Below are positions 1 through 54,664 of a stretch of 64,000 nucleotides of DNA, in pieces. The position numbers and the translations under genes were made by a program. Source of the stretch: Pseudomonadales bacterium (GTDB taxonomy: Bacteria; Pseudomonadota; Gammaproteobacteria; Pseudomonadales; Azotimanducaceae); NCBI GenBank assembly GCA_965208525.1, contig OZ242340.1, positions 2,711,737 to 2,775,736 of the forward strand. The letters are read 5' to 3'. The notes under the pieces are model-generated. The model was not told the DNA's origin. It saw only the letters and a program-made list of their open reading frames with translations, and searched no databases. The number at the start of each line of letters is the position of its first letter. The stretch's first letter is position 1.

Positions 1-239
1 GCGCGTCCGACAGCTTCGATGCTGCCTTCCCGCACCTCGGCGCGATCTGGCTGGACTTGCCCCACGCCGAGCAACAGGCAGACGGCACCTACGGCGTCTT
101 CGTCGCAAACCTCGATGACTCGCTAGGAGGCTGCGCCGTACAGTCAGTTGCAGACTCCCAGCAAGGCGTCAGGGCGATCCGCAAGGTGGCGCGCAGTAGG
201 GTTATTCCGTTGATAAACAATGCATTGAGTCCACACTGA
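1..239 (+). CDS. 3' end of an unidentified gene running in from the window edge (C-terminal fragment)
   Basis: Frame is open from position 3 to a stop at 237-239 (ORF track 57..239 is its tail). No recognisable family from the ~79 aa visible. Confidence 0.3.
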   Translation, partial: ASDSFDAAFPHLGAIWLDLPHAEQQADGTYGVFVANLDDSLGGCAVQSVADSQQGVRAIRKVARSRVIPLINNALSPH

Positions 240-363
240 GCGTGTCGCTGACGCTCCCGGCGTCTCGCCGGAATGCGGCAGGCAGCACAAGGTTTTGTGG
301 GGCATGTTGGATTCCCGTTCGACGTGGGCGTAGACTTCGGCAACCGTTCGCCGGAGTCCGACC

Positions 364-1515
364 ATGCCCCGACTGTGCCGCAACGCCCTCTCCGCCGCAA
401 GGGTCCGAACCGCGCCCCCCGGCAGCCACACCGACGGCAACGGGCTCATGCTGCGCGTCCGCAAGAGCGGATCGAGGCAGTGGATCCAGCGCATCACCAT
501 CCACGGAAGGCGCGTCGACCTCGGACTCGGCGGCGCGGAGCTCGTGAGCCTCGCCGACGCCCGGCGGACGGCGGCGGAGAACCGGGCCATCGCCCGCACC
601 GGCGGGGACCCTCGGCGCAGCCGGGTGCCGACCTTCGCGGCGGCGGAGGCGGCCTGCTTCGAGCAGAGGCGGGAGTGCTGGCGCACCGAGAGTCCGGCGA
701 AGACCTGGCGCATCGCGATGGACCGGCACGTGCTGCCGCGGCTCGGCGGGGTTCCGGTGGACCGGGTGGGCAGCGCGGCGGTGCACGAGGTGCTGCGGCC
801 ACTGGCGGTGTCCGGGAGGCACGCGACGGTGAAGGCGGCGGGGTCGGCGATCACGGCGGTGCTGGAGTGGGCGCGGATCGAGGAGTTCCGGGCGGAGGGC
901 TCGCCGGTGGAGACGGTGCGGCGTGCGCTGCCGCGGCGGGAGTCGGGGCCCAGGCACCACGCGGCGCTGCACTGGTCGGAGGTGGGCGCGGCGCTGGACC
1001 GGATCGACGCGACGCGGTGCGCGGCGTCGACGAAGCGGGCGGTCCGGTTCACGGCGCTGACGGCGGCGCGGCAGGTGGAGGTTCGGCGGGCGACGTGGGA
1101 CCAGCTGGACCTGGACGCGGCGGTGTGGGTGCGGCCGGCGGAGTCGATGAAGGCGGGGCGCGCGCACCGGGTTCCGCTGTCGCGGCAGGCGCTGGCGGTG
1201 CTGGCGGAGGCGCGCGAGGGCGCCCGGGGCGGGGGGCTGGTGTTCCCCGGCTCGCGTCCGGGTTCGATGCTGGGGGACCGGGTGATGACGCAGGCGCTGC
1301 GGAACGCGGGGATCGCGGCGACGGGTCACGGGTTCCGCTCGAGCTTCAAGGACTGGGCGCGGGGTCACGAGGTGGACGAGCTGCTGTCGGAGTTCGCGCT
1401 GGCGCACGTGGAGGGCTCGGCGACGGTGGCGGCGTACGCGCGCGACGACCTGCTGGAGCGGCGGCGGCCCATGATGCAGCGCTGGGCGGACGCGGTCGCT
1501 GTCAATGGCAACTGA
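364..1515 (+). CDS. int: P4-type tyrosine recombinase / phage integrase (Arm DNA-binding N-domain plus catalytic domain)
   Basis: N-terminus '...DGNGLMLRVRKSGSRQWIQRITIHGRRVDLGLG' is the P4-integrase arm-binding signature. C-terminal catalytic residues are present: R (TALTAAR), 'HGFRSSF' (H-x-x-R), 'LAH', and Y in 'AAYARDD'. ATG at 364. Confidence 0.85.
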   Translation: MPRLCRNALSAARVRTAPPGSHTDGNGLMLRVRKSGSRQWIQRITIHGRRVDLGLGGAELVSLADARRTAAENRAIARTGGDPRRSRVPTFAAAEAACFEQRRECWRTESPAKTWRIAMDRHVLPRLGGVPVDRVGSAAVHEVLRPLAVSGRHATVKAAGSAITAVLEWARIEEFRAEGSPVETVRRALPRRESGPRHHAALHWSEVGAALDRIDATRCAASTKRAVRFTALTAARQVEVRRATWDQLDLDAAVWVRPAESMKAGRAHRVPLSRQALAVLAEAREGARGGGLVFPGSRPGSMLGDRVMTQALRNAGIAATGHGFRSSFKDWARGHEVDELLSEFALAHVEGSATVAAYARDDLLERRRPMMQRWADAVAVNGN

Positions 1516-4045
1516 AAACTGCGCGCTTTCGGGGACGTCGTCCGAGCGGTCTTGACCTTCGGACGGTCGGCACGGCGCTGGCGCGCCCTGCCCGAACGTG
1601 TCCCGGCGAACGTTGGCGAACGGGGCGCCGGTCCGTCGAGGACGGCGGCATGGCCAGCGGCGCGACCCGGCGAGTCGGGTCCCAATGGGGCACCGTGCTA
1701 CGCTTCCGAGCGGCCCCCGCCCGATGTCTCAGGCCTCCCGGCTTCCGTGTTTTGAGGCCCGGACAGCCGAAGGGGCCGAGGGCGGGGGCACCGCCCCTGG
1801 TCGGGGCTTCCGCCGGCGCACCCGCAGCCGCAGGAAGGTCGCAATCCCCGGCTGGGGGCACCTCTGCATCCGCTACCATGCGCGCGCCGGCCCGGTCGGG
1901 GAAGGCGGCCTTTCATTTCAGTCGATGGTGTGGCCGGCCGCCCGTCGCGTCCCTTTGGGGGCTTGCGGCGCCCCGCGCCGGGCCTGCTTCCCCTGGTTGC
2001 GGCAAGGAGTGCATCGTGGGCCGGCGAACGTTGCCGAACGGGCGTCGGCGGGGCGGGGTTCGTCGATCCCCTGCGGCGTTGCGGCTTCCCGAGCGGAGCG
2101 GGACGGCGTGGCCGGGAGGGGCCACGGCGGGCCGCGGGACCGGGCAGGATGCGGCGCGGCGTGTGTGCCGCGCCGCGACCGTACCCGGCGCGGGGCGGTG
2201 GCATCCACCGGCCTGCGCCATGCGGCGATGCGGCGCTGGCGCGTGGGGCGCGATCTCGGCGAGACGCCGTGCGACGCCGGAGGCTCGACGCCCTTCCCTC
2301 CGTCACTACCGGACGGCAGCCGGGGCGGATGCCTGCCGCGCGCGGCGGCCGGTAGTGACGGAGGGAAAACGCGGCATTCGGGCCAGTGGCGGCCAGCGAT
2401 TCGGTAAGAAAAAAGCTGATGATGGCGTGGTGAAGCGCCGCTATGATGCGTCCCATCACCCTGTCGCCCTTTGGCGACGTGGCTGGGCAGAGGCCCGGCG
2501 TGATGGCGTCACCGGAATTGAGGTGACGACCCAGTGCCTAGCTGCAACTGCTGCAGCGCAGGCGGTCGACGCATCGCAAGGCACGGCTCGCCACATCCGC
2601 AGTAGCGCGCGGATGGGGGCGATGCCACCGAGACCTGGGGACTGCCGTGGAAGCGCGGAGTCGATCGCGCTGCCGGAGAGTTTGTCCGGCGTTTGGCGGG
2701 AACCCAGGTCACGGCGCGAGGCTTCGCGCGGACGGGGAGCGATCCCTGTCGTTGCAGCCGAAAGGGCGCAGCGTGCGGAGTCTCGGGTGCCGAAAAGGCT
2801 GGCGGGCCTGATGTCGCAAGACACGCCGCGGCTGCCGCAGGAGACGGCAAGGGAAGACGCGTCGACGGACAGTTCCGCACTTCGGTGCGGGGTCTGCATG
2901 CCCTGGCGGGCAGCGGGCCGTCCATCAGAACTAAGCGAAACGACCCGCTCCCGGCCGCGCCCTGCGGCCGCGGGGTGCGGCCAGAGGCGGCAATGCCGCA
3001 CCCATCCCGATCCCCGACGACGAACGGCGCGGCGCCTCGGCGGCCACTGGCGTGTGCCGGCTGCGGCGCACCTCGCCCGGAGCGCCTGTCGCGTGCACGA
3101 GCGCGGCCTGCTTCGGCTCGTTGCCCGCAAGCGCGCGAAGAACGCCACGCTCGTGCGCGTTCTGCGTGGCGGGATGGCCGAAGGACGCGCTCCTGGCGCG
3201 GTTTTCCGGCAGTGGGCGGACTGCCGCCCCTGCGCCACGGCCCCGAAGAGTCGGATCCGCTCGCCGCGGGGGCAGGGAAGGTGGCCGGGGGAGCGGTCGG
3301 CGGGGTGGCGGAGTTCCCGGCGGAAGCACTGCAGAGCGGAGGCGGCCACCTTCCCTGCGGACAGCGTTGGGTCGCGCCGGATCGCGTCAAGGGAGGCTTC
3401 GCCGGCGAGGACGCCGCCCTTGACACGCTGCGGCGCTCCGAACGTGACCCAGCGTCGCCCTGGCCCGCGACCTGCCCGGTCCGGACGCGCACGGGCGTTG
3501 TCTGGTTCGACTCCTCGCCCGCGCGATCCGAAAGGAGGCGTCCCTCGTTGCCTGCGTCGCGGCGGAATCGGCGACGAACGGGCGCGAATCCTCGAAGGCG
3601 GCGCTCCGGACCGCCACGGCGGCCTCGATCGATGCGATGATGTTCGGCGACGAACGGGCGGACCGGGGTCGTCGAACCGTGGGCCGATGCCCGGGGTGCT
3701 GGGTGCTGGGGCCCGAATCGAGAGGTCAGGTCGTGTCGCGCGACGGCGTGGGGAAGCCTGGGGTCGCGCCCGGGAAGGTGTCGTTTGGTGGGGCAGGCTT
3801 TCTGCGAGGACGTGAAAAATGTCGATATTGCGGTGGGTTGCGTGCACTTTGAATGGCTCCGCCGTAGAAAACGGCGCTGGCTCCTAGCCGTAGCTGCGAG
3901 CGTATGCGAACCCGTAGGCCAGCAGTTGCGAAGCAACTGCCGACGCGCTCGTAGAGCACGCTAGCCGAAGAGTGAGCGCAGGCGAGCTGCCCACCCGCCG
4001 TCGGACAGTAGAAGTGCAGAGACGCAGGACCGGAACCGGTAAGCT
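1516..4045. other. 2.5-kb GC-rich segment without a convincing ORF (possible decayed island remnant or non-coding element)
   Basis: All six frames carry long overlapping R/G/A/P-rich ORFs typical of non-coding high-GC DNA. None has a recognisable motif. The segment is dense in CpG and hairpins. Confidence 0.45.
2296..2365. repeat. Perfect 17-bp inverted repeat (ccctccgtcactaccgg / ccggtagtgacggaggg) with a 36-nt spacer that itself contains a 5-bp stem
   Basis: Read directly from sequence. The two arms are exact reverse complements. Confidence 0.8.
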
Positions 4046-4051
4046 TTGCAG

Positions 4052-5128
4052 ATGGCTGGCAACACGTTCGGACAGGCGTTCTCCGTCACCACCTTTGGCG
4101 AGAGCCACGGGCCGGCGCTTGGTGCGGTGGTTGATGGCTGTCCGCCTGGGCTCGCGCTTTGCGAGGCCGATCTGCAACGCGACTTGGATCGCCGCCGTCC
4201 CGGACAGTCGCGCTATACCACGCAGCGGCGGGAACCGGATCAGGTGCGCATCCTCTCTGGCGTCTTCGAGGGCGTCACTACAGGCACCGCGATTGGTCTT
4301 GCCATCGACAACGTGGACCAGCGTTCGCGGGACTACGGCGCCATCGCCGAGCAATTCCGTCCCGGCCACGCCGACTACACCTATCGCACCAAGTTTGGCC
4401 GCCGCGACTATCGCGGCGGTGGCCGTGCATCCGCACGGGAAACGGCGATGCGTGTCGCCGCCGGCGCCATAGCCCGCAAGTACCTTGCGGAACGGGCCGG
4501 AGTCACGGTGCGGGGCCATCTGTCGCAGATCGGCCGACTGCGGCTTGAGCCGGTGGACATGGACGCCGTGGATTCCAACCCCTTCTTCTGCCCCGACCCC
4601 GATGCCATAGACGCCATCGCCGGCATGATTGAGGCGCTGCGCCGAGACGGCGACTCGGTGGGAGCTCAAGTGACCGTGCGGGCGACCAACGTGCCGGTGG
4701 GACTAGGCGAGCCGGTGTTCGGCAAGCTCGATGCAGCACTCGCCGGGGCGCTGATGGGCATCAACGCTGCCAAGGGGGTGGAGATCGGTGCCGGCTTCGC
4801 CGCCGTGGAACAGCGCGGCAGCGAGCACCGGGACGAACGCGACCGAACGGGCTTCCGCAGCAACCACGCGGGCGGCGTGCTCGGTGGCATCTCGTCGGGC
4901 CAGGACATCGTCGCCCGCGTCGCCTTCAAGCCCACGTCGAGCATCACCAAGCCGGGTCGAAGCCTCGACATTCACGGCAACGAGGTGGAGGTGGTGACCA
5001 CGGGTCGTCACGACCCCTGTGTCGGCATCCGCGCCACCCCCATCGTCGAGGCCATGACGGCACTCGTCCTGATGGACCACCTGCTCCGAGATCGCGGCCA
5101 AAACCAGGACGTTGCGCGCGACGGCTAA
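4052..5128 (+). CDS. aroC: Chorismate synthase
   Basis: '[33 protein letters not shown]...RPGHADYTY...' is the canonical AroC N-terminus and motifs. The ORF track starts at TTG 4046; the ATG at 4052 is more likely. Confidence 0.95.
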
Positions 5129-5146
5129 GCGGCAGCACCGCGGCCT

Positions 5147-6952
5147 TTGCCTCTTCCCGCCTTGCCGAGGGACCGTTTGAACATCCGCAACATCGCCATC
5201 GTCGCGCACGTCGATCATGGCAAGACGACGCTCGTGGATCGCTTGCTGCAGCAGACCGACGCCGATCGTCGCCTCGTGGGCCTAGAACGCGCGCTCGACC
5301 AAGGCGAACTCGAACGCGAGCGCGGCATCACCATCCTGGCCAAGACCACCGCCATCGAGTACCAGGGCTGCCGCATCAACATCGTCGACACGCCGGGGCA
5401 TGCCGACTTCGGCGGCGAGGTGGAGCGCATCCTGTCGATGGTGGATTCGGTGCTGCTGCTGGTCGATGCGGTGGAGGGGCCGATGCCCCAGACCCGGTTC
5501 GTCACCGCCAAGGCGTTTGCCGCTGGCCTCAAGCCCATCCTCGTCGTCAACAAGGTTGATCGCGACGGCGCCCAACCTCATGCCGCAGTGGACAAGGTCT
5601 TTGATCTGTTCGACGCCCTCGGCGCCAGCGAAGAGCAGCTCGACTTCCCGGTGATGTTCGCATCGGCGCTGCAGGGTGTCGCCGGCCCCGACCCCGAGCA
5701 GCTCGAACCGGGCATGGCACCGCTGCTTGATTTGATCGTCGGGCGAGTGCCGCCGCCGACCGTGGATGGTGACGGACCGTTTCGGATGCAGGTGAGCACC
5801 CTCGACTACTCGAGCTACGTCGGCGTCATCGCCATCGGCCGCGTGTCCCGTGGCCGCGTGAAGCCCCGCGATCCGGTGAATGTCGTGAATGCCGAGGGAA
5901 ACGTGCGACGGGCGCGGGTGCTTGAGGTGCAGGCAAGCCAGGGGCTCGCTCGGGTGGATCTTCCCACCGCTGTGGCCGGAGACATCGTCGCCTTGAGCGG
6001 CATCGATGACATCGAGGTCTCTGACACCATCTGCGCCGCAGACTCGGTGGACCCGCTGCCGCGCCTGGCCGTGGACGAGCCGACCCTGACGATGACCTTC
6101 GTCGTCAATTCCGGTCCCTTCGCCGGCAAGGAAGGGCGGTTTCTTACGGCCCGTCACCTGCGCGAGCGATTGTTTCGGGAAGCGACACACAACGTCGCGC
6201 TGCGTGTGGCCGATACAGACCAGCCGGATCGATTCCAGGTCTCGGGGCGCGGCGAACTGCATCTGTCGGTGCTGATCGAGACGATGCGACGGGAGGGCTA
6301 CGAGATGGCGGTGACGCAGCCGTCCGTCATCACTCGCGAGGAGGAAGGTCGCACGCTCGAACCCTGGGAGGTAGTGGCCTTCGACATCGACCTCAGCCAT
6401 CAGGGCGCACTCATGGAGACCTTGGGGGAGCGGCGCGGCGAGCTGCTCGACATGGAAGCTGCTGGCGCTGGACGCGTGCGCCTGCGCTACCGCGTCGCCA
6501 GCCGCGCCTTGCTCGGCCTGCGGTCGGAGTTCGCCTCCTTCACCTCCGGCAGCGGCGCGATGACCTTCGCTCCGGACGGCTACCGCCCCAAGGCCATTGG
6601 CGTGCGCGGCGGTCGCAACACAGGCGTCCTCGTCTCCAATGCCACCGGCAAGGCCGTCGCGTATGCCCTGTTCAATCTGCAACGCCGAGGCGAACTCTTC
6701 ATCGGCCCTGGCGACGCGGTCTATGCCGGCATGGTCGTCGGCGCCCACTCCCGCAGCAACGACCTCGTGGTCAATCCGCTGAAGGAAAAGAAGCTCACCA
6801 ACATCCGCGCCGCCGCCAACGACGAGAACATCCTCCTGACGCCGCCGGCGCGGATGTCCCTCGAACAGGCTCTCAACTACATCGCCCGTGACGAACTCGT
6901 GGAGGTAACCCCGGCAGCCATCCGCATCCGCAAGGCAGATGCGGCGCGCTGA
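5147..6952 (+). CDS. typA: Translational GTPase TypA/BipA
   Basis: '[20 protein letters not shown]...[17 protein letters not shown]...' is the G-domain of the EF-G/BipA family at ~600 aa. The true start may be the TTG at ~5177 (MNIRNIAI...). Confidence 0.9.
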
Positions 6953-6976
6953 CTTTCGGTTGAGGTGGCGGGGTTT

Positions 6977-8086
6977 CTATTCGACGTCGAGCACCGCTCG
7001 CTGCACCCGGCTGAGGCGTTCGAACACCGCCCGATCGAGGAGTGCAGGCACGTCCGTTTGGGTGGGTCGTTCTGCGCGTGTGAAAAACGCGTGCTGTGCC
7101 CGGCGCAGGTCCGGCGAGCAGTTCTGGGTGCCGCTGTGCCACAGGTGGGCGTTGTAGGCGATGCAGCTTCCGGCGACGCCCGTCAGGTGTACTTCGCCGG
7201 GTATCGGCGCCACCAGGTCTCTGGGGCTGCCGTTGACCGCAGAGCCCATCGGGTGTTCGCGCCACCGATGGGAACCTGGCACGACGCGGGTGGGGCCATT
7301 GTCTGCCGTGAAATCGTCGAGCAGCCAGATGGCGTTCACCACTTCGGGGTCGCGCACGCCCCAGCCCCAGTCGGCGTGGATGGCTTGGTGGCCATAGCCG
7401 GGCAGCGGGCAGTGGAAGTTCGTGCTCGAGTAGCGGAAGCGCGGGCCAAGGACGTGCCGCACGGCGGCCAGCAGCTTGGGATGGAAGGAAAACGGATCGA
7501 GCAGCCCATCGTTGTTCAGCGCCTTGATGACCGTGCCGGAGACTCTTGCGATGCCGCGGGTCTGCGACACTTCGTGGCCGGCGACAGCGCCTTCGCCTTC
7601 CACCGCGTTGCCTAGGCGCTGACGCATCGCATCGAGTTGTGCAGTGGTCAGGAGCGGGCCGAGGTTGACGTAGCCGTCCTCGTCGAGCGCCTTGCGTTCG
7701 GCGGCGCTTAAGAGCGGGTTGTTCGCATCGTCGATGCCGAGCTCGCGGCAGGCGGCCTCGATCCGGTCCGGAGGCAGGCGGTTCGCCGCGCCGCCCAGGT
7801 GACGGTTCAACATCTTGCGAGCGGTTTCGAGGGTGGGGGTCTCTGCATTGCAATTGGCCAGCAACTCCCGCCGTTCTGCGTCGGTTGCGCCCGCGCACCA
7901 GATGCGTGTCGCGAGGGCTACCCGCGCTTGGCCCGCGGCACGCAAGGCAGGATCGATCGCTGGCAGACGTGGCGTTCGGAGATCGTTGGGTATACCGGCG
8001 AGGTGTGCGGCCGTTAGGTAGCGGGCGATTTCGACACCGTTCTTTGCCGCCGCGCGCATACCGTTAGCCGATGCCTGCAAGTCCAT
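6977..8086 (-). CDS. Phytanoyl-CoA dioxygenase (PhyH) family Fe(II)/2-oxoglutarate oxygenase with ~120-aa N-terminal extension
   Basis: The PhyH-type core begins at '...ERKALDEDGYVNLGPLLT', with 'HADWGW' and a later 'HLWHSG' His. The N-terminal 120 aa have no recognisable domain. Confidence 0.65.
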   Translation of the reverse strand: MDLQASANGMRAAAKNGVEIARYLTAAHLAGIPNDLRTPRLPAIDPALRAAGQARVALATRIWCAGATDAERRELLANCNAETPTLETARKMLNRHLGGAANRLPPDRIEAACRELGIDDANNPLLSAAERKALDEDGYVNLGPLLTTAQLDAMRQRLGNAVEGEGAVAGHEVSQTRGIARVSGTVIKALNNDGLLDPFSFHPKLLAAVRHVLGPRFRYSSTNFHCPLPGYGHQAIHADWGWGVRDPEVVNAIWLLDDFTADNGPTRVVPGSHRWREHPMGSAVNGSPRDLVAPIPGEVHLTGVAGSCIAYNAHLWHSGTQNCSPDLRRAQHAFFTRAERPTQTDVPALLDRAVFERLSRVQRAVLDVE

Positions 8087-8186
8087 GCCGGGTGCTGTTC
8101 CTAGCCTTCAGTGTGTGGAGCATTGTGCCCCAAGGAGCTTGCGCGCGTGTCCGCGTCGAGTCGAGGGCGCGTGGCAGAATGCCGGG

Positions 8187-9020
8187 ATGGTAGTTGGACC
8201 TCTTCGCAGCCTCGACGCGGCCCACGCGTCGCCCATAAGCTACTCATTGCACGTCGGCGACGAAATCGTGCGGCTGAGCGAGCGCATCGGTGGAGGGCTC
8301 AGGGTGGCGTTCGCTGGCAAGCACGAATGCAGGCATTGCGGGGAGCAAACGGATCGAGGTTTCGGGCGTGGCTTTTGCTATCGGTGCTTCAAGCGCCTCG
8401 CTCGTTGCGACCTGTGCATCGTCTCGCCAGCGCGGTGCCATCACCATCTCGGCACTTGTCGGGAGCCGGATTGGGGCGAGGCGAACTGCATGGTGCCGCA
8501 CACCGTGTATCTCGCGGATTCTGGGGGCCTCAAGGTCGGGCTGACGCGCCATGCGGACGGAATCCCGCGCTGGATCGAGCAGGGCGCTCGCGCCGGCATT
8601 GTCATTGCCCGCGCGCCGACGCGTCGCGTTGCGGGAGAGTTGGAGGCAGCCATCGCCGAGGTCGTGCCGGACAAGAGCGATTGGCGGCGGCAGGTGCTCG
8701 GACACAGCGTCGTCGAATCGCTTGCCGACGAGGCGCATCGCATCGGTCGCCTCGTCGGCGAGGATGCGGCGGGCGGGCTTGGCGCGACTTGGGAGGTCGG
8801 TGAGGCGGTGACGCTGCACTACCCGATCCAGCGTCCGCTGCGTCGCCCCGTGCGCCTGAAGCTCCGCCAGGACTCGCCGCTCGAGGGGCGCCTGATTGGC
8901 ATCGTCGGCAGCTTCGTGCTGTTCGACTACGGCGCGTGGAACGTCGCCGAAGACATCGGCACTCACATCACCATTGACGACGTCGCCAACGTGGCCGACA
9001 AACAAGGAGAGCTGTTTTGA
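8187..9020 (+). CDS. DUF2797-family Cys-rich protein (conserved upstream partner of pepN)
   Basis: Cys cluster 'CRHCG...CYRCFKRLARCDLC...C' followed by 'TVYLADSGGLKVGLTRH'. The ORF track starts at 8085; the internal ATG at 8187 (MVVGPLRS) avoids overlap with the divergent neighbour. Stop overlaps the pepN start (ATGA-type coupling). Confidence 0.6.
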   Translation: MVVGPLRSLDAAHASPISYSLHVGDEIVRLSERIGGGLRVAFAGKHECRHCGEQTDRGFGRGFCYRCFKRLARCDLCIVSPARCHHHLGTCREPDWGEANCMVPHTVYLADSGGLKVGLTRHADGIPRWIEQGARAGIVIARAPTRRVAGELEAAIAEVVPDKSDWRRQVLGHSVVESLADEAHRIGRLVGEDAAGGLGATWEVGEAVTLHYPIQRPLRRPVRLKLRQDSPLEGRLIGIVGSFVLFDYGAWNVAEDIGTHITIDDVANVADKQGELF

Positions 9021-11695
9021 GTGACTCGCAAAAAGGCGAGACGGCGCCAAAGGCGCAGCATCGGCTGGATTACGAACCCTTTCCCTTCGACGTGCCCGAG
9101 ACGCACCTCAAGTTCGACATCCATCCCGGCCAGACTACGGTCACCAGCGAACTCGCCATCGAGCGACTGAGCGATGGTGACCTTGTCCTCAACGGCGCCG
9201 ATCTCGAACTCCTTTCCCTTGGAATCGACGGCCGGGAACTCGGCGGCAACGAGTACCGCATCGACGGCGAGACACTGACCCTATTCGACGTGCCTGAGCG
9301 CTGCACGCTGTCGGTAGTCACCCGCATCCACCCGGAAGCCAACACCGCGCTCGAAGGGCTCTACCGCTCCCGCTCCATGTACTGCACCCAATGCGAGGCA
9401 GAGGGCTTCCGCAAGATCACTTGGTTCCCCGACCGCCCGGACGTGCTCTCCCGCTACACCACCACCATCGTGGCGGATGCCGAGACCTGCCCCGTGCTGC
9501 TCGCCGGCGGCAACCTGCTCGAAGAACGCGAGGAAGGCGGTCGGCGCACCGTCGCCTGGCAAGACCCATTCCCCAAGCCGAGCTACCTGTTCGCCCTGGT
9601 GGCCGGAGACCTTGCGCTGCTCGAGGACGAGTTCGTCACCATGTCCGGTCGCCAGGTGGCGCTCGGCATCTACTCTGAGCCCCACAACATCGGCCAGTGC
9701 GGCTATGCCATGGGCGCGCTCAAGCGAGCCATGCGCTGGGACGAGGAGCGCTTCGGGCGCGAGTACGACCTCGACAACTTCATGATCGTCGCGGTCGAGG
9801 ACTTCAACATGGGGGCAATGGAGAACAAGGGCCTCAACATCTTCAACACTTCCTGCGTGCTCGCATCACCCAACACGGCCACGGATGCCGCCCATCAGCG
9901 CGTCGAGGCGGTGGTGGCGCACGAGTATTTCCACAACTGGTCCGGCAATCGTGTCACCTGCCGCGACTGGTTCCAGCTCAGCCTCAAGGAAGGCTTCACG
10001 GTGTTCCGGGATCAGGAGTTCTCCTCCGACATGAACTCCCGCAGCGTCAAGCGGGTGGAGGACGTGAAGTTTCTGCGCGATGTGCAGTTCGCCGAGGATG
10101 CTGGCCCGCTCGCTCATGCGGTGCGACCGGACAGCTACGTCGAAATCTCCAACTTCTACACCACCACCGTGTACGAGAAGGGCGCGGAGGTGGTACGGAT
10201 GTTGGCGACGCTGCTTGGCAGGGCGAAGTTCCGCGCCGCCTGTGATCTCTATTTCGAGCGCCACGACGGCGAGGCCGTGACCATCGAGGACTTCGTGGCG
10301 GCGATGGAGCGGATCTCGGGCCACGATCTCAGCCAGTTCCGGCGATGGTATGCCCAGGCCGGCACGCCGGTGCTAAACGTCGAGGAAAGCCGCAGCGGCG
10401 ACCGCATCGAGCTCGCCATCGAGCAAACCTGCCCGCCAACGCCGGAGCAGGCGACGAAGGAGCCGTTCCACATCCCCTTGGCGCTGGGTCTCGTGGCCGA
10501 CGGTGGCGACCGGCTCGGTGCATCGGAGAAACCAGCGTCGATTCGCGCGGATGCAGATGTCGAGAAGGAGGGGCTCGGTGCGGTCGTACACATGCGCGGC
10601 AAGCGTCTCGCCCTTGCCTTCGAGAATGCCGGGGAGAATGCCCAGGTGAGTTTCCTGCGCGGCTTCTCGGCGCCGGTCAGGGTGCGGTACCCGCGTTCTT
10701 GGGACGTGCTCGCGGAGCTTGCCGCCACGGACAGCGATGGCTTTGCGCGTTGGGATGCGGCGCAGGACCTGTTGGTGGAGTGCATACTCGCCAGCGACGG
10801 CGAGGATTCGCTGGCGGGCGTGGAAGTGGTGACGGGCCTCTTCGAGCGGCTCTGGCAGCAGGCGATGGAGGCACCAGACGACGGCGAAGCCAAGGCACTC
10901 TTGGCAGCGACGATGACCCTGCCACAGGTGGGCTACCTGCTCGAGACTTCGCCCGGGCGCGACATCTTGGCACTCGCCGACGTGCGCGATGCGTTCCTGG
11001 ACTCGATTGCCGGTCACCTCGATTGGGAGACGCTCGCAGCGGCGCAGGACAGCGCAGAGGCGTACAGTCCGGATTCGGTTTCCATCGCCCGGCGGCAGCT
11101 AAAGGCCACAGCACTGGGCTTTACCGTGCGGGAGCTAGACCGAACGGGCTCCGCAAGGGCACAAGAGCCCCTCGGCAGCCTGCTCGACGGTGCCGACAAC
11201 CTCACGGACCGGCTGCTCGGCTTGCAGGGGCTCCTTGGCCTTGTGTCCATGCCGGAAGCCCGGAAGCAGGAGCGCATCGACGAATTCCACGAAGCGTGGT
11301 CGAGCGAAGCGCTCGTGCTGGACGCTTGGTTCTCCTCGCAAGCCGGCAGCAGCGAGTGGGGGACGTTGCCCCGCATCCGCGCCTTGGCGGAGCACCCATC
11401 GTTCGACATCGCCAACCCCAACAAGGTGCGCGCATTGCACCTGCGCTTCGCCATCGGCAACGTGAGGGGATTTCACGCCGCCGACGGCGCCTCATACCGC
11501 TGGCTGGCGGAAACGGTGGTGGAGATGGACCCATCCAACCCCCAAGTCGCCGCAAGAATGGCCCGCGCCCTGGCGCCTTGGCGACGCCACAGCCCGGCCC
11601 GGGGCCGACTGATGCAAGAAGCCCTGTCGTCAATCCGCCGCCCGGGGTTGTCCAAGGATGTGACCGAGGTGATCGAAAAGGCACTGTCGGGCTAG
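9017..11695 (+). CDS. pepN: Aminopeptidase N (M1 family)
   Basis: 'HEYFHNWSGNRVTCRDWFQLSLKEGFTVFRDQEF' is the HEXXH-(18)-E zinc motif region of PepN, at 892 aa. Confidence 0.95.
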   Translation: MSDSQKGETAPKAQHRLDYEPFPFDVPETHLKFDIHPGQTTVTSELAIERLSDGDLVLNGADLELLSLGIDGRELGGNEYRIDGETLTLFDVPERCTLSVVTRIHPEANTALEGLYRSRSMYCTQCEAEGFRKITWFPDRPDVLSRYTTTIVADAETCPVLLAGGNLLEEREEGGRRTVAWQDPFPKPSYLFALVAGDLALLEDEFVTMSGRQVALGIYSEPHNIGQCGYAMGALKRAMRWDEERFGREYDLDNFMIVAVEDFNMGAMENKGLNIFNTSCVLASPNTATDAAHQRVEAVVAHEYFHNWSGNRVTCRDWFQLSLKEGFTVFRDQEFSSDMNSRSVKRVEDVKFLRDVQFAEDAGPLAHAVRPDSYVEISNFYTTTVYEKGAEVVRMLATLLGRAKFRAACDLYFERHDGEAVTIEDFVAAMERISGHDLSQFRRWYAQAGTPVLNVEESRSGDRIELAIEQTCPPTPEQATKEPFHIPLALGLVADGGDRLGASEKPASIRADADVEKEGLGAVVHMRGKRLALAFENAGENAQVSFLRGFSAPVRVRYPRSWDVLAELAATDSDGFARWDAAQDLLVECILASDGEDSLAGVEVVTGLFERLWQQAMEAPDDGEAKALLAATMTLPQVGYLLETSPGRDILALADVRDAFLDSIAGHLDWETLAAAQDSAEAYSPDSVSIARRQLKATALGFTVRELDRTGSARAQEPLGSLLDGADNLTDRLLGLQGLLGLVSMPEARKQERIDEFHEAWSSEALVLDAWFSSQAGSSEWGTLPRIRALAEHPSFDIANPNKVRALHLRFAIGNVRGFHAADGASYRWLAETVVEMDPSNPQVAARMARALAPWRRHSPARGRLMQEALSSIRRPGLSKDVTEVIEKALSG

Positions 11696-11716
11696 CAGTT
11701 CGCGCGCGCGAACTGC
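11695..11716. terminator. 22-bp perfect GC-rich palindrome (gcagttcgcgcgcgcgaactgc) starting at the pepN stop codon
   Basis: The sequence is self-complementary. It sits between convergent pepN (+) and batD (-). Confidence 0.55.
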
Positions 11717-11777
11717 CGACGAGCCCCTCAGGGCGCGTTTAGCAGCCTGTCGGACTTGTGGACGTGCGGGCCTCGGA

Positions 11778-16473: not shown

Positions 16474-17045
16474 GTGCGGCGAAGGCGTTGGAGCTTGGCG
16501 GACTGTGCAGCCAGCGTCGCGCTCGCCTCGCTCAGAAACCGGCGGAGCAGCGCCGTACGCTCGCGCGCCGCGTTTTGCAGCGCGTCGATTGCCGCGGTTG
16601 CAAGGCCCGTCGCGTCGGCGTCGAAGCGTGGCCGAAAGCGTGCCTCGCCGAGTGCCTTGCGCAGCGCAGCCAACTCCGGCTGCGGGAACCGTTCCGTCAG
16701 TGCTTGCGTCCAGGCGTCCCCAGCGGCTGTGGTCGCCCCTTGGCGCCGCTCCACGCGCACCAGCACGCGCTTCAGCACGTCGCTGATCCGGTCTGCCAAG
16801 GCACGGGCGTCGATCTCGCCAGCCGCATGTTGACGCGCAGCAAGGCGGACGTGGCGTTCAGCGGCGACATAGGGCTCGCGCAGTGCGGCCCGCTGCCGCA
16901 GCCAGTGCCTCGCAAGCAATGTCGCGAGCACGATCGCCAACACCCCCAACCCGAACACCAACCACCACCCCGGTGCCGGCGGCCAAAAACCGGGCGCAAC
17001 GGGCTCGTGAATGTCCCTTAGATCACTCAAGAGATCGGGCGGCAC
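16470..17045 (-). CDS. DUF4381-family membrane protein of the Bat/MoxR operon
   Basis: 'LRDIHEPVAPGFWPPAPGWWLVFGLGVLAIVLATLLA' matches the DUF4381 start signature. Probable GTG start at ~17045; the longer ORF-track N-terminus overlaps the DUF58 gene and is rejected. Confidence 0.55.
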   Translation of the reverse strand: MPPDLLSDLRDIHEPVAPGFWPPAPGWWLVFGLGVLAIVLATLLARHWLRQRAALREPYVAAERHVRLAARQHAAGEIDARALADRISDVLKRVLVRVERRQGATTAAGDAWTQALTERFPQPELAALRKALGEARFRPRFDADATGLATAAIDALQNAARERTALLRRFLSEASATLAAQSAKLQRLRRT

Positions 17046-54590: not shown

Positions 54591-54664
54591 GGCTGGATGG
54601 CAGAGTGGTTATGCAGCGGACTGCAACTCCGTGTACGCCGGTTCGATTCCGACTCCAGCCTCCA
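54591..54664 (+). tRNA. tRNA-Cys (anticodon GCA), 74 nt including encoded CCA, discriminator U
   Basis: Position-by-position similar to E. coli tRNA-Cys. Perfect 7-bp acceptor (GGCTGGA/TCCAGCC), anticodon arm CGGA-CTGCAAC-TCCG and T-loop TTCGATT. One C48.A62 mismatch in the T-stem. Confidence 0.8.

Follow-up and report, generated by a model that had tools for sequence, protein, structure and literature searches.

What lies between an integrase gene and aroC on the chromosome of a Pseudomonadales bacterium of the Azotimanducaceae (GenBank assembly GCA_965208525.1, contig OZ242340.1, positions 2,711,737 to 2,775,736)? In this 64,000-nucleotide stretch, hereafter the window, a frame that starts inside a gene is followed by the integrase, aroC and typA/bipA (Table 1), and the original prediction had noted about 2.5 kb of GC-rich DNA between the integrase and aroC (1516-4045) without a credible gene. 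We report that the integrase and the gene-free DNA behind it form a single inserted block, which is probably a small integrative element with the integrase as its sole gene, a 2.3-kb gene-free cargo bay and a location within a split palindromic repeat. What looked like a 2.5-kb gene desert would thus be explained as the inner part of a mobile element with defined ends.

An empty site delimits the insertion

Loci used for comparison are numbered with the prefix L. A contig with a 96%-identical aroC (L046) holds a methyltransferase gene, a 134-bp spacer and aroC, without any element, demonstrating a present/absent polymorphism with the empty site in a relative. Window positions 1-126 aligned to L046 9727-9852 with 89.7% identity, which corresponds to the end of a 293-aa MTS/PrmA-type methyltransferase (presumably prmB-like, a label that follows the E. 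coli prmB-aroC arrangement), and positions 4018-9000 aligned to aroC and onward at 84-89% (4018-5122 at 88-90%), with nothing between 126 and 4018 aligning in the BLAST comparison. Because L046 aligns on both sides only, the integrase and the gene-free stretch constitute one inserted block, and ~131-3866 (3.73 kb) is an insertion relative to the related genome, not chromosomal intergenic DNA. The suggestion that the gene-free segment is part of an integrated element is therefore upheld by the relatives and by the empty site. The insertion also replaced the C-terminus of the methyltransferase: the L046 protein ends ...NLDDLPASVP-stop, while the window protein reads ...NLDDS followed by ~38 codons (...NLDDSLGGCAVQ...NALSPH-stop), its frame now being open into the element up to a stop at 237-239.

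An assembly chimera or chance, with the integrase and the G+C-rich stretch joined by misassembly, is extremely improbable as an explanation of this arrangement. The relatives are metagenomic contigs and MAGs (metagenome-assembled genomes), so an origin of the sequence in metagenome assembly is probable, yet the left end, the right arm, the junction repeat and the S unit (a 77-bp repeat beyond the right junction) all recur in independent contigs from other samples, and the flanks are collinear with L046.

The junctions are the halves of a palindrome

No flanking att (attachment site) repeats had been noticed by eye, but comparison with L046 and the sibling elements reveals both a 10-bp direct repeat and a 17-bp inverted repeat at the ends. 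The direct repeat (CTGCGCCGTA at 131-140 and CTCCGCCGTA at 3857-3866) has one mismatch in the window and is perfect in L006 and in L007a, the first of two tandem elements at locus L007; the exact left 10-mer is unique within the window. Such a repeat inside the junctions is the usual signature of crossover in an identity block common to attP and attB. Every left junction reads (C/G)G / CTAGGAGNCNGCGCCGT-A, and the right junctions carry the reverse complement, ACGGCGCNGNCTCCTAG. Nucleotide homology of the window to the siblings L001, L002, L006, L007a, L007b and L054 starts at 121-123, and in the L007 tandem pair a sequence like window 3715-3964 abuts the left end of the next element. The observation that no tRNA adjoins the element was correct, the sole tRNA of the window being tRNA-Cys at 54591.

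The two arms of the inverted repeat, M and M', were found directly connected through a 5-nt loop, without any insert, at L006 9647-9685 and at L052 ~7795-7833, in the latter case between ftsE-like and ftsY-like genes. Since this 39-bp palindrome, termed hp1, exists closed elsewhere, the apparent 17-bp terminal inverted repeats are the halves of a split hp1. Each closed copy stands with an S unit and without an element (L006 9647-9685; L052 ~7717-7833, minus strand) and represents either a virgin attB or a site restored after excision. A further closed palindrome was observed at L006 16931-16959.

The S unit lies on the host side of the right junction, and in siblings its far end can bear a second element. 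It alone separates the two tandem sibling elements of L007 (1259-6027 and 6023 onward), precedes the elements on their left side in L006 and L002, and in L052 accompanies hp1 without any element. In the spacer of L046, weak alignment to S and to the left hp1 half marks a degenerate counterpart at the orthologous place, which suggests, without proving it, that S is a host-resident repeat. Of the gene-free stretch drawn up to aroC, the portion up to 3856 consequently stands as element DNA, whereas its last ~180 bp (3867-4045) comprise the right palindrome half, the S unit and the aroC leader and belong to the host side. An unoccupied relative of S (GGCTAGCAGTTCGCGCGCGCGAACTGCCGACGAGCCCCTCAGGGCGCGTTTAG) is located at window 11690-11745, where it overlaps the stop codon TAG (11693-11695) of a pepN-like (peptidase-M1) gene and runs past it; it is possibly a landing site or a member of a host repeat family, and a similar free S-like copy was seen at L006 18293-18340.

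Two other delimitations were considered and abandoned. A first model, in which the element comprised 121-3964 and was flanked by CGCTAG, was dropped because the arm homology of L006 stops at the junction repeat (16648-16657) with no S after it, and because hp1 plus S exists without an element. A transposon-like reading of the 17-bp inverted repeats was ruled out, as these are halves of a pre-existing palindrome and the sole gene encodes a tyrosine integrase; the combination of a transposase gene and a target-site duplication that marks an insertion sequence or transposon was not found here.

Integrase, arms and a proposed route of integration

The integrase is intact, as had been stated, and matches three Pfam domains, Arm-DNA-bind_3 (PF13356, 4e-15), Phage_int_M (PF22022, 5e-12) and Phage_integrase (PF00589, 9e-10), so that the N-terminal arm-binding, central core-binding and C-terminal catalytic domains are all present. 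Its N-terminal domain matches PDB 3jtz, the N-domain of a CP4-like integrase, and NCBIfam PRK09692 gave a domain-level match below the full-length cut-off. Across 36 homologues, R236, K263, H322, R325 and H348 are invariant and Y358 is nearly invariant, with catalytic roles assigned by motif position (TAARQVE; HGFRSSF; LAH...Y) and not by structural superposition. Pairwise dN/dS (the ratio of nonsynonymous to synonymous divergence) is 0.27-0.32 at a dS of 0.2-0.75, and the integrase is under purifying selection. Its homologues number more than 1,700, with about 60 clusters at 75-91% identity, and are found in many marine metagenome assemblies, in several copies in some genomes and in tandem arrays. 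The sibling loci come from MAGs labelled Gammaproteobacteria, Pseudomonadales or Azotimanducaceae, from metagenome contigs and from one Dehalococcoidia MAG fragment. Exact-sequence look-ups returned no record for the window integrase, aroC or P0003, and viral contigs yielded neither a close integrase nor the hairpin I1 described below.

Several sibling copies are incomplete or rearranged. In the Dehalococcoidia MAG contig (L004 7995-8235), only the first ~80 integrase codons are present, at 79% amino acid identity, beside a 2,448-aa open reading frame (ORF), which suggests either cross-phylum transfer or a binning or assembly artefact. The integrase of the first L007 element is frameshifted at its 3' end, and the annotated 501-aa protein reads into the interior module that we call block C; restriction-type genes (Mrr_cat_2/ResIII) follow the second L007 element. 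The contig with the closest integrase (L001, 95% amino acid identity) ends, at 4925-5432, in a second integrase C-terminal fragment, which is inverted and lies ~1.3 kb downstream of the first.

Outside the integrase, the conserved noncoding parts of the element are the 240 bp left of the gene and ~150 bp before the right junction. Within the window, the 13-mer TTKGTGGGGCAKG has exact matches only at one position in each of these arms, in the same orientation; L006 and L007a also carry it in both arms and L001 in the left one, which makes it a candidate arm-type site for the arm-binding domain of the integrase. Another motif, CGAACGGG, was rejected as an arm-type site; it is enriched here, with 5 of its 14 window copies lying in the element, but its positions are not consistent in siblings. 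A perfect 17-bp direct repeat, TCGGCGACGAACGGGCG, to which this motif is related, occurs at 3568-3584 and 3644-3660, 76 bp apart and 200-300 bp inside the right end.

These features would fit site-specific recombination of the lambda type. The integrase would engage the CTGCGCCGTA identity block, in attP as in chromosomal hp1, through its catalytic and core-binding domains, and its N-terminal arm-binding domain would reach across to the TTKGTGGGGCAKG copies in both arms. Integration would split hp1 and thereby create the look of 17-bp terminal inverted repeats, while tandem accretion would become possible through another site, at the distal end of the neighbouring S unit. The expected circular junction would join the right arm to the left arm as ...TTTGAATGG-CTSCGCCGTA-CAGTCAGTTGCAG..., leaving a restored chromosomal site CTAGGAGGCTGCGCCGT-AGAAA-ACGGCGCTGGCTCCTAG.

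The interior carries no coding signal

That no credible gene follows the integrase was confirmed by base composition at codon positions, by periodicity and by Pfam and protein searches. No ORF of at least 60-70 aa between the integrase and aroC had the coding-type G+C at the three codon positions (GC1/GC2/GC3) of the real neighbouring genes. The period-3 Fourier signal-to-noise ratio over 1516-3888 averaged 1.18 (maximum 2.56), compared to 11.1 in the integrase and 6.7 in host genes 4046-11695, and was thus at noise level throughout the gene-free stretch. Pfam searches of the long ORFs and of complete six-frame translations of the interior gave no family above noise (a single CMD match, E = 0.014, was taken as noise) and, in the six frames, no relaxase or mating-pair family. 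A six-frame query of the conserved interior blocks against 5.8 billion proteins resulted in zero matches, and tblastn with 120 integrase homologues revealed no integrase remnant in the interior. Tandem repeats were not found in the interior, nor was an excisionase found in the element.

These results bear directly on the proposal that the interior is decayed, pseudogenised cargo of a once larger island, its genes now unrecognisable. Sibling interiors hold 0-6 genes in the same bay, none of them for transfer or replication, and this copy holds none. Real genes occupy the bay in L002 (HU, bactofilin and DUF4268), L006 (a phrog_3630-like protein, an Integrase_1-type recombinase and DUF2059) and L009 (GIY-YIG), which favors former cargo here, as do weak frame signals at 3000-3350 and 3420-3660 and a G+C content unusually high for noncoding DNA (73.3% in 1516-3700, compared to 76% in the integrase and 66.7% in the rest of the window). 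However, frameshifts shift local periodicity and do not erase it, so the lack of a period-3 signal counts against pseudogenes; tblastn with the sibling cargo proteins left no trace in the interior, in line with the empty Pfam and protein searches; the dS between integrase copies, only about 0.2-0.4, is too small for complete scrambling of genes; and the interior G+C has not relaxed toward the 67% of the host. We therefore consider decayed cargo an improbable origin of the interior.

A mosaic of hairpin-rich modules fills the interior

Among siblings, the interior (1516 to about 3700) is not kept together as one unit. Instead, blocks A, C, E, F, G and H are each common to different siblings, and their order differs. 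Even L001, with its 95%-identical integrase, has in common with the window interior only one 44-bp block just after the stop codon. A 28-bp direct repeat, 1597-1624 / 2015-2042, in which block A recurs, brackets a 418-bp segment that is absent from L007a. Block C is placed differently relative to the integrase gene in L006 and is absent from L001, L002, L003 and L054, while block E lies 330 bp after the integrase of L003. The identity of the blocks (~78%) is near the synonymous divergence of the integrase, and most of this sequence therefore looks neutral. The interior would be a patchwork of hairpin-rich noncoding modules swapped among sibling elements, not a set of decayed genes. Two sibling elements of one sample also have in common a 605-bp stretch (L007 3082-3685 and L052 18306-18908, 96% identical) that was called as a 317-aa gene in L052 and shows no codon periodicity (GC1/GC2/GC3 of 0.73/0.72/0.69), a shared noncoding module.

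At least one hairpin, I1 in block C, appears to be an exception to these neutral-looking blocks, being kept, as its substitution pattern suggests, by selection on its stem. Four elements retain the 19-bp hairpin, with compensatory changes: three copies have an invariant stem, and in L008 three pairs are changed on both sides and one has become G-T. Its 3' flank is conserved (GCGGC..T..GG.CAG.GGCGGC.AG) and is followed by the only A+T-richer patch of the interior (2395-2450), in which a TATGAT-like hexamer is conserved in four elements. Hairpin I7 in block G, common to L002, differs from that copy by one compensatory change from A-T to C-G. Compared to shuffled sequences, the interior folded with a mean z of -1.22, and 11 of the 37 windows tested fell below -2, whereas host genes averaged -0.06. 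The segment 2448-2830 reached a minimum free energy of -220.5 kcal/mol, relative to -184.5 kcal/mol for shuffles (z = -6.15 on the plus strand and -4.40 on the minus strand), and had no BLAST match in the fetched loci or plasmids.

A large structured noncoding RNA had been proposed as one identity of the segment, and the strong folding agrees with this part of the proposal. More broadly, the interior might encode one or more functional structured RNAs, for instance a large noncoding RNA like those known from prophages and mobile elements, or an RNA that cooperates with the integrase; the plus strand folds better than the minus strand, compensatory changes occur in I1 and I7 together with one G-U-compatible change, and the A+T-richer patch with its hexamer follows I1. 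Nevertheless, a scan against Rfam 15, including group II introns, GOLLD, ROOL, HEARO and OLE, gave no match near the gathering score, and the five matches at E<=1 were all to eukaryotic microRNA hairpin models (25-30 bits, with thresholds of 79-100). No sigma-70-like promoter was found in the interior, where promoters were at chance, and terminators showed no excess over chance. No sibling has a homologue of the strongest fold, which is therefore not a conserved integrase partner; L001, the closest integrase copy, has an unrelated and poorly folding interior; and folding excess on both strands fits DNA palindromes equally well. Given this and the mosaic interior, one single conserved large RNA is not supported as its content, and functional RNA in general seems to us quite unlikely.

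A second lead came from window 3372-3428 (GCGTCAAGGGAGGCTTCGCC...CCCTTGAC), the core of hairpin 3374-3436, which is 80-86% identical (E = 2e-5) to a hairpin of Rhizobiales conjugative plasmids. The counterpart of this 55-nt hairpin of the element is conserved in many plasmids of Rhizobium, Agrobacterium, Sinorhizobium and Bosea (L048 3001-3054, L049 6001-6054, L050 5001-5050), where it marks the end of a DUF3991-toprim gene and has DUF1419, DUF3085 and a large helicase downstream of it, a region that we take to be the transfer-proximal ("leading") part of these plasmids. A DUF3991/toprim pseudogene in the interior was ruled out, as the plasmid match is the hairpin and leaves no protein trace. 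Together with I1, the plasmid-like hairpin raises the possibility that the modules take part in the processing of DNA during conjugation.

In its most specific form, this idea makes the element an oriT-only hitcher of the iOriT type: I1, its 3' flank and the A+T-richer patch would form an origin of transfer (oriT) nicked by the relaxase of a co-resident element, and the other hairpins would act in the single-stranded transferred DNA. The conserved I1 stem and flank, the persistence of the I1 module amid reshuffled surroundings and the resemblance of 3372-3428 to a plasmid hairpin beside a toprim-domain gene all speak for it; the presence of integrase relatives in Gammaproteobacteria, Pseudomonadales, Azotimanducaceae and Dehalococcoidia MAGs calls for some vehicle, and relaxase-less integrative elements with an oriT only are reported to be common (Ares-Arroyo et al., bioRxiv 10.64898/2026.01.13.699239). 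On the other side, no relaxase, helper element or known oriT is linked to the element, plasmids contain no homologue of block C, the block is missing from four siblings, and the plasmid hairpin match is short and lies there partly inside a coding region. We regard such a hitcher as possible though rather unlikely; it would extend, not exclude, the interpretation as a small integrative element. As to I1 itself, we speculate that its most likely role is that of a cis-acting DNA site, such as an oriT used by a helper conjugative element, and that it is possibly a small RNA.

Table 1. Positions of the element, its parts and its neighbours in the window
Feature	Position	Strand	Remarks
Frame starting inside a gene	3..239		methyltransferase frame
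Methyltransferase gene, 3' end	3..122	+	L046 alignment; coding-like GC1/GC2/GC3
hp1 left half (M)	123..139	+	CTAGGAGGCTGCGCCGT; includes left CTGCGCCGTA; same motif at left junction of 10 sibling elements
Left arm (P' arm), upstream of the integrase gene	141..363	+	conserved in L001, L002, L006, L007 (two copies) and L054
Candidate arm-type site, left	294-306	+	TTTGTGGGGCATG; exact 13-mer
CP4/P4-type heterobivalent tyrosine integrase	364..1515	+	383 aa; intact; three Pfam domains
Block A	1582..1630	+	conserved directly after the integrase stop
Block C	2015..2396	+	noncoding; common to L007a (79%), L006 (78%) and part of L008
Hairpin I1 (block C)	2294-2326 / 2335-2367		19-bp perfect stem 2294-2312 / 2349-2367
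Self-folding segment	2448..2830	+	dense short perfect hairpins; no homologue in any fetched locus
Block E	2824..2982	+	noncoding; L003, 77.6% over 161 bp, E = 8e-30
Block F	3077..3164	+	hairpin I6 (3092-3115 / 3136-3159); two copies downstream of the L002 integrase
Block G	3256..3436	+	3256-3414 common to L002; includes hairpin I7 and hairpin 3374-3436; z = -2.66
Hairpin I7 (block G)	3272-3287 / 3343-3358		16 bp, perfect
Right arm (P arm)	3709..3856	+	78-80% identical to right ends L006 16500-16667 and L007a 5775-5936
Candidate arm-type site, right	3785-3797	+	TTGGTGGGGCAGG; second 13-mer copy
Right junction	3857..3887	+	CTCCGCCGTA 3857-3866, loop GAAA, right half M' ACGGCGCTGGCTCCTAG 3871-3887
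S unit, 77-bp repeat	3888..3964	+	hairpin GCAGTTGCGAAGCAACTGC 3922-3940; ends CGCTAG; host-side
aroC leader	3965..4045	+	host; alignable to L046 from about 4003/4018 onward
aroC	4046/4052-5128
typA/bipA	5147-6952

Weighing the interpretation and comparison with known systems

The small integrative element remains the probable explanation of the locus, although several observations weigh against parts of it. The crossover point was inferred from a handful of junctions, and the right repeat of the window has a mismatch; the boundaries in L002 and L006 are ambiguous, with extra copies of palindrome halves nearby; and the candidate arm-type site has one copy per arm only. The orthologous spacer of L046 holds only degenerate hp1-like and S-like sequence, so that hp1 and S may have come with or before the element and not be ancestral host DNA. 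Within the interior, the covariation of I1 comes from one divergent sequence (L008), nothing ties this hairpin to a relaxase, and no promoter, terminator excess or Rfam family backs transcription. Hairpin enrichment is common to the L007a interior and is not seen in those of L010, L003 or L001, so hairpin richness is not supported as a family trait. A broader reading, in which the interior consists of exchangeable, selected nucleic-acid modules (I1, the 2448-2830 fold and the 3372-3428 hairpin) that act as single-stranded DNA or RNA in transfer, priming or maintenance, is tentative, and we hold it to be rather unlikely. If true, it would make the element a protein-minimal hitchhiker with a cargo of wholly structural nucleic acid and a palindromic host repeat as its target. 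With modules that serve as oriT or RNA, it would be a compact natural element moving between cells with one protein and structured nucleic acid, and would extend the class of oriT-only hitchers beyond clinical species; if the modules lack such roles, the element is a small island of the ordinary sort whose cargo is junk.

Among known systems, the islands of the CP4-57/P4 type (with a DUF4102/Arm-DNA-bind_3 N-domain) resemble the element in having a three-domain integrase at one end of the insert, a short identity block at both junctions and conserved arms flanking the core. Integration at the 3' end of a tRNA or transfer-messenger RNA (tmRNA) gene is a common habit of this group and not a strict requirement; the target here is instead the centre of a 39-bp intergenic palindrome. 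Unlike those islands, the element is only 3.7 kb long, has no cargo gene and no recognisable excisionase, and belongs to a multi-copy family with tandem arrays. Tandem accretion and cis-mobilizable elements (CIMEs) are known from work on integrative and conjugative elements (ICEs) and integrative and mobilizable elements (IMEs) in streptococci. The tandem elements of L007 with their att-bearing spacer, and the att remnants without an element in L006 and L052, are comparable to these; the spacer here, in contrast, consists of a separate 77-bp hairpin unit that would offer usable sites at both ends.

Integrons (IntI with arrays of attC hairpins) likewise place a tyrosine recombinase beside DNA rich in imperfect palindromes. 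The present integrase differs in having an arm-binding domain, and the element has no attI, no R'/R'' attC boxes and no cassette ORFs, its hairpins being unrelated to one another and without common boxes. Kilobase-scale, strongly folding and gene-free DNA in a mobile element recalls GOLLD, ROOL, HEARO and OLE, from which the interior is set apart by its lack of an Rfam match and of conservation as a unit among siblings. In the literature on integrase-only elements with inverted repeats and on RNA-guided tyrosine recombinases, we found nothing applicable. With iOriT elements, or IMEs lacking a relaxase, the element has in common an integrase, att sites and noncoding cis elements without relaxase or mating genes, as well as large families that outnumber any helper. 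iOriT elements were described from six nosocomial species and mostly have numerous cargo genes (bioRxiv 10.64898/2026.01.13.699239), and hairpin I1, unlike their oriT, is a candidate only. The kind of element described here is otherwise known, and this one is a modest variant, part of a family of very small elements that carry only an integrase, are widespread in marine metagenome assemblies and show a palindromic landing site and tandem accretion. What is unusual about it is the absence of a cargo gene and an excisionase, the non-tRNA target and the hairpin-rich mosaic interior.

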